Source: an uncultured Chloroflexia bacterium (GTDB taxonomy: Bacteria; Chloroflexota; Limnocylindria; Limnocylindrales; CSP1-4). From it: DNA of 64,000 nucleotides. The position numbers were made by a program, and so were the translations under genes. Positions 51,836-58,419 of this stretch are shown in pieces. Numbering within the stretch: position 1 is the first letter of the stretch; each line of letters starts with the position of its first letter. The stretch spans positions 355,062-419,061 of the forward strand of contig CAWJBJ010000005.1 in NCBI GenBank assembly GCA_963841135.1, in the 5' to 3' direction. Under the pieces are notes generated by a model. It ran no database searches. It saw only the letters and a list, made by a program, of their open reading frames with translations, and was not told the origin of the DNA.

Positions 51836-53284
<1,449 letters not shown>

Positions 53285-53290
53285 CCCGAC

Positions 53291-56799
<3,509 letters not shown>

Positions 56800-57545: not shown

Positions 57546-57569
57546 ACGCCCCGGCCGTGACCGGGGCGT
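57546..57569. terminator. Hairpin between convergent genes
   Basis: ACGCCCCGG-CCGTGA-CCGGGGCGT. Confidence 0.6.
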
Positions 57570-57592: not shown

Positions 57593-58279
57593 CTACTTGG
57601 CGGTCGCCTTCTTCGCCTTCGGGGCCGCCTTCGCGGTCGCCTTCGGCGGGGTCTTGGCGGCGGTTGCGGCCTTCTTCGGGGCTGCCTTCGTCGCGCCCTT
57701 CTTGGCCGCGGCGCCCTTCGTTGCGGCGCCCTTGGCTGCGCCCGCCTTCGCGGGAGCGGCCTTGGCCGGCGCTGTCTCGGCGGCGCTCGACGCCGCGGCC
57801 TTCGCGGCGGCGGCCTCGGCGCGAGCCGTCTTGCTCAGCGCGGCGCGGGCCTTGCCGGCGGCGGTCTGGGCGCCCTTGGCCTTGCCGGCCTTGCCGGCGG
57901 CGATGCGGGCCTTCGCGGCCTTCTGGGCGGCCATCTTGCCGGTGGACTTCGTCACGTGGCCGCCGGCCTGGACCTGCGCGCCCCCGAGGGCGGCATTGAT
58001 CTTGCGGGTGAGGCGCGACTTGCGGCGGGCTGCGGCGTTCGCATGGATCGCGCCCGCCTTCGAGGCGCGATCGAGCGCGCTGAGGGCGTCGATGAGCGCG
58101 GCTGTCGCATCGTCCGCGGACGCGGCGGGACCGGCGGCGACGGCGAGCGCCTTCGCGACGAACGTCTTCGCGGCACTGCGGCGCGGCTGGAGGACTTCGT
58201 GGCGGCTCGCGGCCTGGCGGACTCGCTTGAGTCCTGACGGCGTGCGAGCTCCCGTCCAGGTGCGGGGCGTCTTGGCCAA
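57593..58279 (-). CDS. rpsT: 30S ribosomal protein S20 with about 130-aa Lys/Ala-rich C-terminal tail
   Basis: SGLKRVRQAASRH..RRSAAKTFVAK, ALDRASKAGAIHANAAARRKSRL (S20 signature), then low-complexity tail; located near lepA and holA, as commonly seen. Confidence 0.85.
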   Translation of the reverse strand: MAKTPRTWTGARTPSGLKRVRQAASRHEVLQPRRSAAKTFVAKALAVAAGPAASADDATAALIDALSALDRASKAGAIHANAAARRKSRLTRKINAALGGAQVQAGGHVTKSTGKMAAQKAAKARIAAGKAGKAKGAQTAAGKARAALSKTARAEAAAAKAAASSAAETAPAKAAPAKAGAAKGAATKGAAAKKGATKAAPKKAATAAKTPPKATAKAAPKAKKATAK

Positions 58280-58419
58280 GGTGGGCTGACCTCAGGTGTT
58301 CGGATGATCGACGGCATGGCGGCGCTGGGATGGGCGCCTGGCGCGAAGCGGGATGGTAGCACAGCTCGGTCGGCGGACTCCTCCCGCGGTCGAGGCCCGG
58401 ACCCGCCACACTGCCCCGC

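Follow-up and report, generated by a model that had tools for sequence, protein, structure and literature searches.

An enlarged ribosomal protein bS20 with a conserved helical module and a histone H1-like tail in Limnocylindria

The gene at 57593..58279 on the minus strand of the window (the whole 64,000-nucleotide stretch analyzed, C5:355062-419061) is a genuine bS20 gene, rpsT, whose 228-residue product carries, after a canonical core, a conserved helical module and a variable Lys/Ala/Pro/Thr tail. bS20 is a primary 16S-binding assembly protein that is normally constant in size. The extended form described here comes from an uncultured soil bacterium of the CSP1-4-like family of Limnocylindria (Chloroflexota), represented by a metagenome-assembled genome (MAG) of 3.46 Mb in five contigs, with 71% GC and an estimated completeness of 79%. 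The reading we favor, with a probability of roughly 0.6, is that rpsT is functional and encodes a composite bS20 in which the core anchors the protein on the 30S subunit, the module docks, and the H1-like tail contacts RNA, and that the same build arose on bL21.

The assignment to the bS20 family rests on a whole-model sequence match, a three-helix fold, and a single gene. Pfam Ribosomal_S20p (PF01649) matches residues 11-95 over its entire length (profile positions 1-83 of 83) at 57.5 bits and TIGR00029 matches at 57.2 bits, against curated cut-offs of 29.5 and 33 bits, respectively. Because the genome has no other S20 match, rpsT is taken to be the functional copy and not a paralogue, a second copy being conceivable given that the MAG is 79% complete; each relative with any match likewise has one. 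The frame ends in a stop codon at 57593-57595 and begins with TTG, 10 nt downstream of a Shine-Dalgarno-like GAGG (58290..58293, minus strand), both read from the sequence. GAGGT occupies the equivalent site ahead of a TTG or GTG start in 20 genomes of the genus, and both the ribosome-binding motif and the non-ATG start are conserved among relatives. The E. coli rpsT gene, which is autoregulated, also has a non-ATG start. The pattern of synonymous changes fits the annotated frame and a codon-usage model chooses the minus strand at this locus, favoring it over antisense open reading frames, which were rejected as genes and are ordinary high-GC artifacts. Downstream of rpsT, on the other strand, lie lepA, a hemW-like gene, and the start of hrcA; gap-pgk-eno lies upstream. 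A GC-rich hairpin with an 8-bp stem and 6-nt loop (CGCCCCGG / CCGGGGCG) occurs 25 nt past the stop codon (57547-57568, minus strand); it has no T-run and was not called by the terminator scan.

Because the PF01649 match starts at residue 11, about 10 residues precede the bS20 core and about 130 follow it, so that the sequence-only reading of a 228-residue S20 with a short N-terminal extension and a long tail was correct; solved bS20 chains run from 76 to 108 residues. The N-terminal extension (residues 1-10, MAKTPRTWTG; 58250..58279, minus strand, as are all parts of rpsT) belongs to a peptide that reads AKTPRTW, GKTPRTY, or ARKARTW across the class. Structure prediction with AlphaFold2, using 101 sequences, gave the canonical core (residues 11-98; 57986..58249) three helices at residues 14-49, 55-75, and 80-99 with pLDDT of 84-97. 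A variable Gly-rich linker with low column conservation and pLDDT of 54-60 (residues 99-112; 57944..57985) leads to the Ala/Lys-rich two-helix module (residues 113-163, GKMAAQKAAKARIAAGKAGKAKGAQTAAGKARAALSKTARAEAAAAKAAA; 57791..57943), for which helices were predicted at residues 115-138 and 140-165 with pLDDT of 58-77. The tertiary arrangement of the module is predicted with only moderate confidence. From about residue 166 the chain is predicted to be disordered, with pLDDT below 50 from residue 168 onward, in the variable H1-like tail (residues 164-228; 57596..57790). A helical AAxKA segment followed by disordered repeats, as proposed from the letters of the sequence, is therefore what the model shows. 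The best 50 Foldseek hits were all bS20 chains aligned over the core only, with TM scores of 0.6-0.83 normalized to the target. Searches of the PDB by sequence and by fold for a structural precedent of the module or tail likewise returned bS20 cores only, and no solved bS20 chain, including the plastid forms that are longer at the N terminus, aligns past profile position 99.

The extension is far from what chance would produce in this genome. Residues 101-228 contain 26 Lys, 3 Arg, 55 Ala, and 2 acidic residues (net charge +27). Lys makes up about 20% of this stretch; across the proteome (3319 genes of the codon-usage gene model), Lys accounts for 1.77% and Arg for 8.39% of residues. At the proteome frequency, the probability of 26 Lys in 128 residues is approximately 5e-20. 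The Lys-rich extension runs counter to the compositional drift of a 71% GC genome. Within it, the 65 residues from 164 to 228 comprise 16 Lys, no Arg, 29 Ala, 6 Pro, 7 Thr, and 1 Glu (net +15), and the corresponding DNA contains weak tandem repeats of 12, 15, and 30 nt. In a proteome so poor in Lys and rich in Arg, an unusually large part of the cell's lysine resides in the tails of two abundant ribosomal proteins.

Selection divides the extension into parts of different character. The module has a dN/dS of 0.165, compared with 0.217 for the core, 0.26 for the N-terminal extension, 0.58 for the linker, and about 0.5 for the variable tail, the last value being only indicative because the tail alignment is unreliable. 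Across 81 sequences, 12 columns of the module are invariant and a further 17 nearly so, and its most conserved stretch, K-AKGAQTAAGKARAA, lies where the two helices join. Purifying selection constrains the module no less strongly than the core. The variable tail differs in length and sequence between species and keeps its composition, and the far C terminus (KATAKAAPK.KK) is moderately conserved. Residues 164-228 have the Lys/Ala/Pro composition, disorder, and rapid length change of H1- and PAKKA-type tails; the module (residues 113-163) keeps its residues column by column, so that membership in that class is limited to the variable tail and does not apply to the extension as a whole.

All S20 proteins examined from Limnocylindria have the extension, 86 of them from the CSP1-4-like family, 10 from Limnocylindraceae, and 8 from a sister order, and it is thus not a one-off; absence from close relatives, which would have spoken against the sequence-only reading, was not what we found. 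S20 of the CSP1-4-like family is 208-269 residues long (median 223, n = 86), and the same architecture was found in all 20 readable genomes of the genus. In the sister order (173-184 residues, n = 8) the module is recognizable, reading TAAGKAKVAVTRASRESAAA and also …RTAAGKAKVAVTRASRESAAA…, without the long variable tail, and in Limnocylindraceae (126-169 residues, n = 10) only a short AKKP tail and module remnants persist. The latter family, a sister to CSP1-4, has 1.3-Mb genomes of 63% GC and is described as almost exclusively freshwater (PMC13212565). In the CSP1-4-like family, whose genomes are larger, bS20 tails exceed in length those of this streamlined relative. Because the streamlined Limnocylindraceae have largely lost the module, it must be dispensable. 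Among species-representative genomes, 458 loci carried the N-terminal and core motifs typical of this protein, and all of the 80 fetched belong to this clade. In a large protein database, over 3500 metagenomic homologues fell into the long size class, and the best 120 listed measure 213-394 residues.

Outside Limnocylindria the picture differs. In a survey of 151 sampled Chloroflexota genomes, using an HMM built from S20 cores, most S20 proteins from outside the class ended within 12 residues of the core. Separately evolved tails of 31-105 residues occur in at least four other Chloroflexota families, indicating that the S20 C terminus is permissive. A profile of the module by itself matched 77 of 1.84 billion representative proteins. 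Of these, 56 contained an S20 core, and the remaining 21 resemble N-terminally truncated gene calls, frameshifted copies, and a few apparent assembly chimeras. On this basis we rejected the idea that the module stands alone or is widely reused as a domain, and judging from these matches it appears to occur essentially only on S20.

Several known systems resemble parts of this protein. Like canonical bS20 of Thermus thermophilus, it has a three-helix core (40% identity, TM score 0.75 normalized to the target), and like canonical bS20 it is the product of a single-copy gene with a non-ATG start; it differs in being 2.2- to 2.6-fold longer than the Thermus (99-106 residues) and E. coli (87 residues) proteins and in its 10-residue N-terminal extension, conserved 51-residue helical module, and 65-residue polycationic tail. 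Plastid bS20c (PDB 5mmj, 4v61, and 28jw) is also enlarged, to 166-202 residues in the chains as deposited, but there the extra sequence is N-terminal, with the core at residues 50-178, and unrelated. Lys-rich low-complexity regions are frequent on bacterial ribosomal proteins according to Ntountoumi et al. (2019; PMC6821194), who surveyed over 1500 proteomes, took these regions to bind nucleic acids, and classed 34 of 45 low-complexity regions on bL21 as Lys-rich. The terminal Ala/Lys-rich extension of an abundant ribosomal protein described here is of the same kind, and the bL21 tail of this genome matches; however, S20 is not listed in that survey as a frequent carrier, and the low-complexity tail here is preceded by a conserved module under strong purifying selection, which in evolutionary terms does not count as low complexity. 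The tail also shares Lys/Ala/Pro composition, disorder, and rapid length evolution with the PAKKA tails of actinobacterial and Deinococcus Ku, Hlp/HupB, HU, and topoisomerase I, although in bS20 Thr residues are common and strict PAKKA units seldom occur. The PAKKA tails of Ku and Hlp are confined to free-living or soil species (PMC3553676), and lineages that are free-living or inhabit soil have tails of both kinds more often than reduced lineages do; the shorter tails of Limnocylindraceae may parallel the absence of PAKKA tails from obligately parasitic mycobacteria. Lastly, mosquito RpS6 and RpL23a, as cited in PMC11764897, have H1-like Lys/Ala/Pro extensions that evolved independently in a lineage on conserved ribosomal proteins, as here, but these are eukaryotic cytosolic proteins not homologous to bS20 and without a conserved helical module. 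Basic low-complexity tails on bacterial ribosomal proteins are thus already known. In the literature searched we found neither an S20 so large and with a conserved module fused to it nor any account of an extended bS20 from Chloroflexota or another group, and a recent genomics paper on Limnocylindria that compiled 236 MAGs (PMC13212565) makes no mention of ribosomal proteins.

How might such a protein work? In the composite reading, the canonical core would anchor bS20 at its normal site in the body of the 30S subunit, and the module may dock on a defined surface beside the bS20 C terminus, either 16S rRNA or a neighboring protein, making it a lineage-specific ribosomal element. This placement follows what we take to be the position of the bS20 C terminus on the 30S subunit. 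The 16S rRNA of this genome is of ordinary length (1500 nt against a 1533-position model), and the part of its alignment displayed, to about position 720, contains no 5′-domain insertion that could partner the module; a 16S expansion segment in that role was rejected for this part of the alignment. The variable tail would be a flexible Lys-based polycation making nonspecific and dynamic contacts with RNA phosphates, as do histone H1 and PAKKA tails, and its effect may be charge neutralization, subunit stabilization, or RNA chaperoning during 30S assembly. We infer nonspecific nucleic acid binding from the composition of the tail and from the literature on Ku and Hlp, whose PAKKA tails interact with DNA, modulate binding, and promote end joining (PMC3553676). 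Because the carrier here is a ribosomal protein, the ligand is likely RNA and not DNA. bL21 would have acquired the same build of globular core, conserved helical module, and variable AKPT tail, and the tails of phosphoglycerate kinase (PGK) and an RlmB-like methylase would be sporadic, slippage-driven expansions of similar sequence.

The comparison with other proteins draws on a scan for Lys/Ala/Pro/Thr-rich segments in one genome (3.46 Mb), covering both the 3319 called genes and all six frames. The sequence-only reading had proposed a lineage-wide tendency to append basic tails and a proteome-wide scan by which to see it. Such tails do exist, class-wide on S20 and order-wide on bL21, but the tendency is narrow: long basic Ala/Lys/Pro/Thr tails occur on about 8 of the 3319 proteins (~0.25%), almost all of them nucleic acid associated. 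The carriers are bS20, bL21, PGK, an RlmB-like SpoU methylase, and probably Ku; NusA and uL15 have tails of a related sort, one uncharacterized protein has an N-terminal tail, and a 768-residue enzyme has a tail of 40 residues. The tail of bL21 (236 residues; C4:84052-84762) is always present in relatives, throughout the order; in it a conserved helical module (…AKTERQRLEEAAAAQAAKDAELAAKLA) leads into a variable AKPT segment, and PKRxRATKKDE forms the conserved end. Within the genus, its length does not covary significantly with that of the S20 tail (rho 0.32, p 0.31). The methylase (445 residues; C5:993475-994812) has a disordered C-terminal tail of 60-230 residues in every member of the genus, with a conserved (D/E)DLLPG and a basic end, KPRKPRxPR..HA, but Lys/Ala/Pro expansions are inserted into it in only 5 of the 23. 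The tail of Ku (C5:863430-864296) is broken by a frameshift; NusA (C4:1902747-1904168) has a net-neutral tail with three copies of KPKRxTKK; and uL15 (C5:1022042-1022923) has an acidic extension, with a Lys-rich end in another frame. Both the Ku and uL15 genes of this genome appear to be affected by frameshifts. Stable tails are thus found on two ribosomal proteins, bS20 and bL21, and labile ones on several others.

Several observations concern other low-complexity sequences. NusA tails in the genus contain two to four copies of KPKR[VTA]TKK separated by Ala-rich or acidic spacers and end in EEVAS. An NYN-domain protein (C4:212063-213970) has RGG/RGR repeats followed by three copies of APKRRTTRK at its end, so that a short basic motif is common to three RNA-associated proteins, namely NusA, bL21 (in its conserved end), and the NYN protein. 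A plus-strand open reading frame that is absent from the gene model (C5:207367-208167) encodes an N-terminal Lys/Ala/Ser/Thr-rich tail, ..QGGIG.. repeats, and a hydrophobic C terminus. A separate class of Lys-containing low-complexity sequence, unrelated to the cytoplasmic Ala/Lys tails, consists of the Pro/Thr/Lys linkers of (T)PKPT type in secreted or membrane proteins (C2:6974-8602, C4:704725-706407, C4:809796-811295, C4:1578614-1579387, and C5:820340-821233).

PGK had been singled out from the sequence as a second housekeeping protein with the same kind of tail, and the resemblance is real. The pgk gene (523 residues; 53291..54862, plus strand) ends 2.7 kb from rpsT, and its PGK domain (residues 11-390) is followed by a repetitive C-terminal tail (residues 402-523; 54494..54859, plus strand) of about 122 residues, including 26 Lys, 45 Ala, 22 Pro, and 17 Thr, with a net charge of +31. 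As a lineage trait, however, the PGK tail did not hold up: among 18 species of the genus it is at least 90 residues long in three, 30-40 residues in two, and a stub of 5-16 residues in the rest, and its DNA is a tandem repeat with a period of 12, 24, or 36 nt in four to seven copies. Inverted repeats between the S20 and PGK tails reach 70-82% identity. Recent copying of DNA between the two was rejected; identity at synonymous codons was 15 against 14.1 expected and 14 against 14.4 expected, and because the codons agree no more than expected, the likeness is compositional only. The PGK tail is a young DNA tandem repeat that, on this sequence comparison, was not copied from rpsT. A correlation between S20 and PGK tail lengths within the genus (rho -0.73) is phylogenetically confounded because it is driven by one subclade of three genomes. 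The gene order is gap-pgk-eno (52265-56234), with the enolase gene (54876) directly after pgk, where tpiA usually sits; the NCBIfam model for a bifunctional PGK/TIM matched in its PGK part only. In at least 9 of 12 Limnocylindraceae genomes, PGK instead has an N-terminal extension of 150-200 residues that starts with a conserved M(P/A)EKKG(L/I)(L/F)SRL(I/F)G, followed by variable AKP repeats, two copies of SRPANRPQVKP, and the PGK core. The N-terminal motif resembles the amphipathic membrane-targeting helix of MinD; it is absent from all six frames of the genome studied here.

These data bear on whether the tails need any function at all. Slippage expansions could be tolerated at exposed termini and kept by mutational dynamics, in which case the bS20 variable tail and the PGK tail would be neutral, and the tandem repeats in DNA (clear in PGK and weaker in S20), the fast length variation between species, the variable-tail dN/dS of about 0.5, and the independent origin of S20 tails in other Chloroflexota families are all consistent with this. 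For the PGK tail alone neutrality remains a good explanation. Drift in a 71% GC, Lys-poor, Arg-rich genome, however, should not keep 20-25% Lys and almost no Arg in every one of about 100 species, KATAKAAPK.KK at the far C terminus is moderately conserved, and the module with its dN/dS of 0.165 is beyond what neutrality can explain; neutrality of both tails therefore seems to us unlikely.

A second alternative, raised by the sequence-only reading, is that basic tails are a shared address label that colocalizes ribosomes, glycolysis, and the nucleoid in a condensate or compartment of polyanions (RNA, DNA, or polyphosphate). Tails of similar composition do occur on bS20, bL21, PGK, the RlmB-like methylase, and probably Ku of one genome, but their likeness is compositional, with no motif common to them, and they are restricted to about 8 of 3319 proteins. 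Nor are they found consistently on the proposed clients, being constant on S20 and L21 and absent or nearly so from most congeners on PGK (long in 3 of 18) and, as Lys-rich expansions, from most methylases (present in 5 of 23), and the S20 and L21 tail lengths do not covary. In favor of the idea, an H1-like protein, AlgP, is reported to organize polyphosphate granules in Pseudomonas (PMC9239181), and the conserved amphipathic motif (EKKGLLSRLIG) and AKP-rich linker of Limnocylindraceae PGK suggest that placement of this enzyme matters in the order. The basic bS20 tail does not amount to evidence of a proteome-wide signal, and we regard the address label as quite improbable. We hold out equally little hope for a related proposal, that Lys/Ala/Pro tails mark a small set of clients (bS20, bL21, the rRNA methylase, Ku, and some PGK) drawn to a common polyanionic phase of rRNA, nucleoid, or polyphosphate, in which PGK placement would be selected order-wide, by a C-terminal tail in some CSP1-4-like species and by an N-terminal amphipathic helix and AKP linker in Limnocylindraceae, and the S20 module would position the polycation at the foot of the 30S subunit.

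Moonlighting of free bS20 as an H1-like nucleoid- or RNA-binding protein, in which the tail serves a second role and might modify rpsT autoregulation, is very improbable. The tail composition matches that of DNA-binding PAKKA and H1 tails and rpsT keeps a non-ATG start, like the autoregulated E. coli gene, but the module is found only fused to S20, and because bL21 shares the architecture of bS20, an explanation at the level of the ribosome is indicated. That a frameshift, a missed stop, or a fused neighboring open reading frame created a falsely long S20 is scarcely credible, since, although several long-read MAGs of the genus are frameshifted in the repeats (five S20 and four L21 loci among them), the frameshifted copies give Arg/Pro-rich nonsense and are exceptions, the synonymous-change pattern fits the rpsT frame, and the same uninterrupted frame and module recur in about 100 independent species genomes and thousands of metagenomic proteins. 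Repeat frameshifts are common in these MAGs, affecting a further rplU locus as well, and can fuse rplU to rpmA.

A whole class of globally abundant soil and freshwater bacteria has a bS20 more than twice the usual length, and some of the added sequence is under constraint equal to that on the original protein. This suggests that ribosomes of an uncultured lineage contain an architectural element not described before. The extension also provides a practical marker for Limnocylindria and a caveat for annotation, as long-read MAGs often contain frameshifts in the repeats. The comparison of tails tempers condensate-style readings drawn from a single genome and illustrates how such tails evolve, being stable on two ribosomal proteins and switched on and off by repeat slippage on enzymes like PGK.
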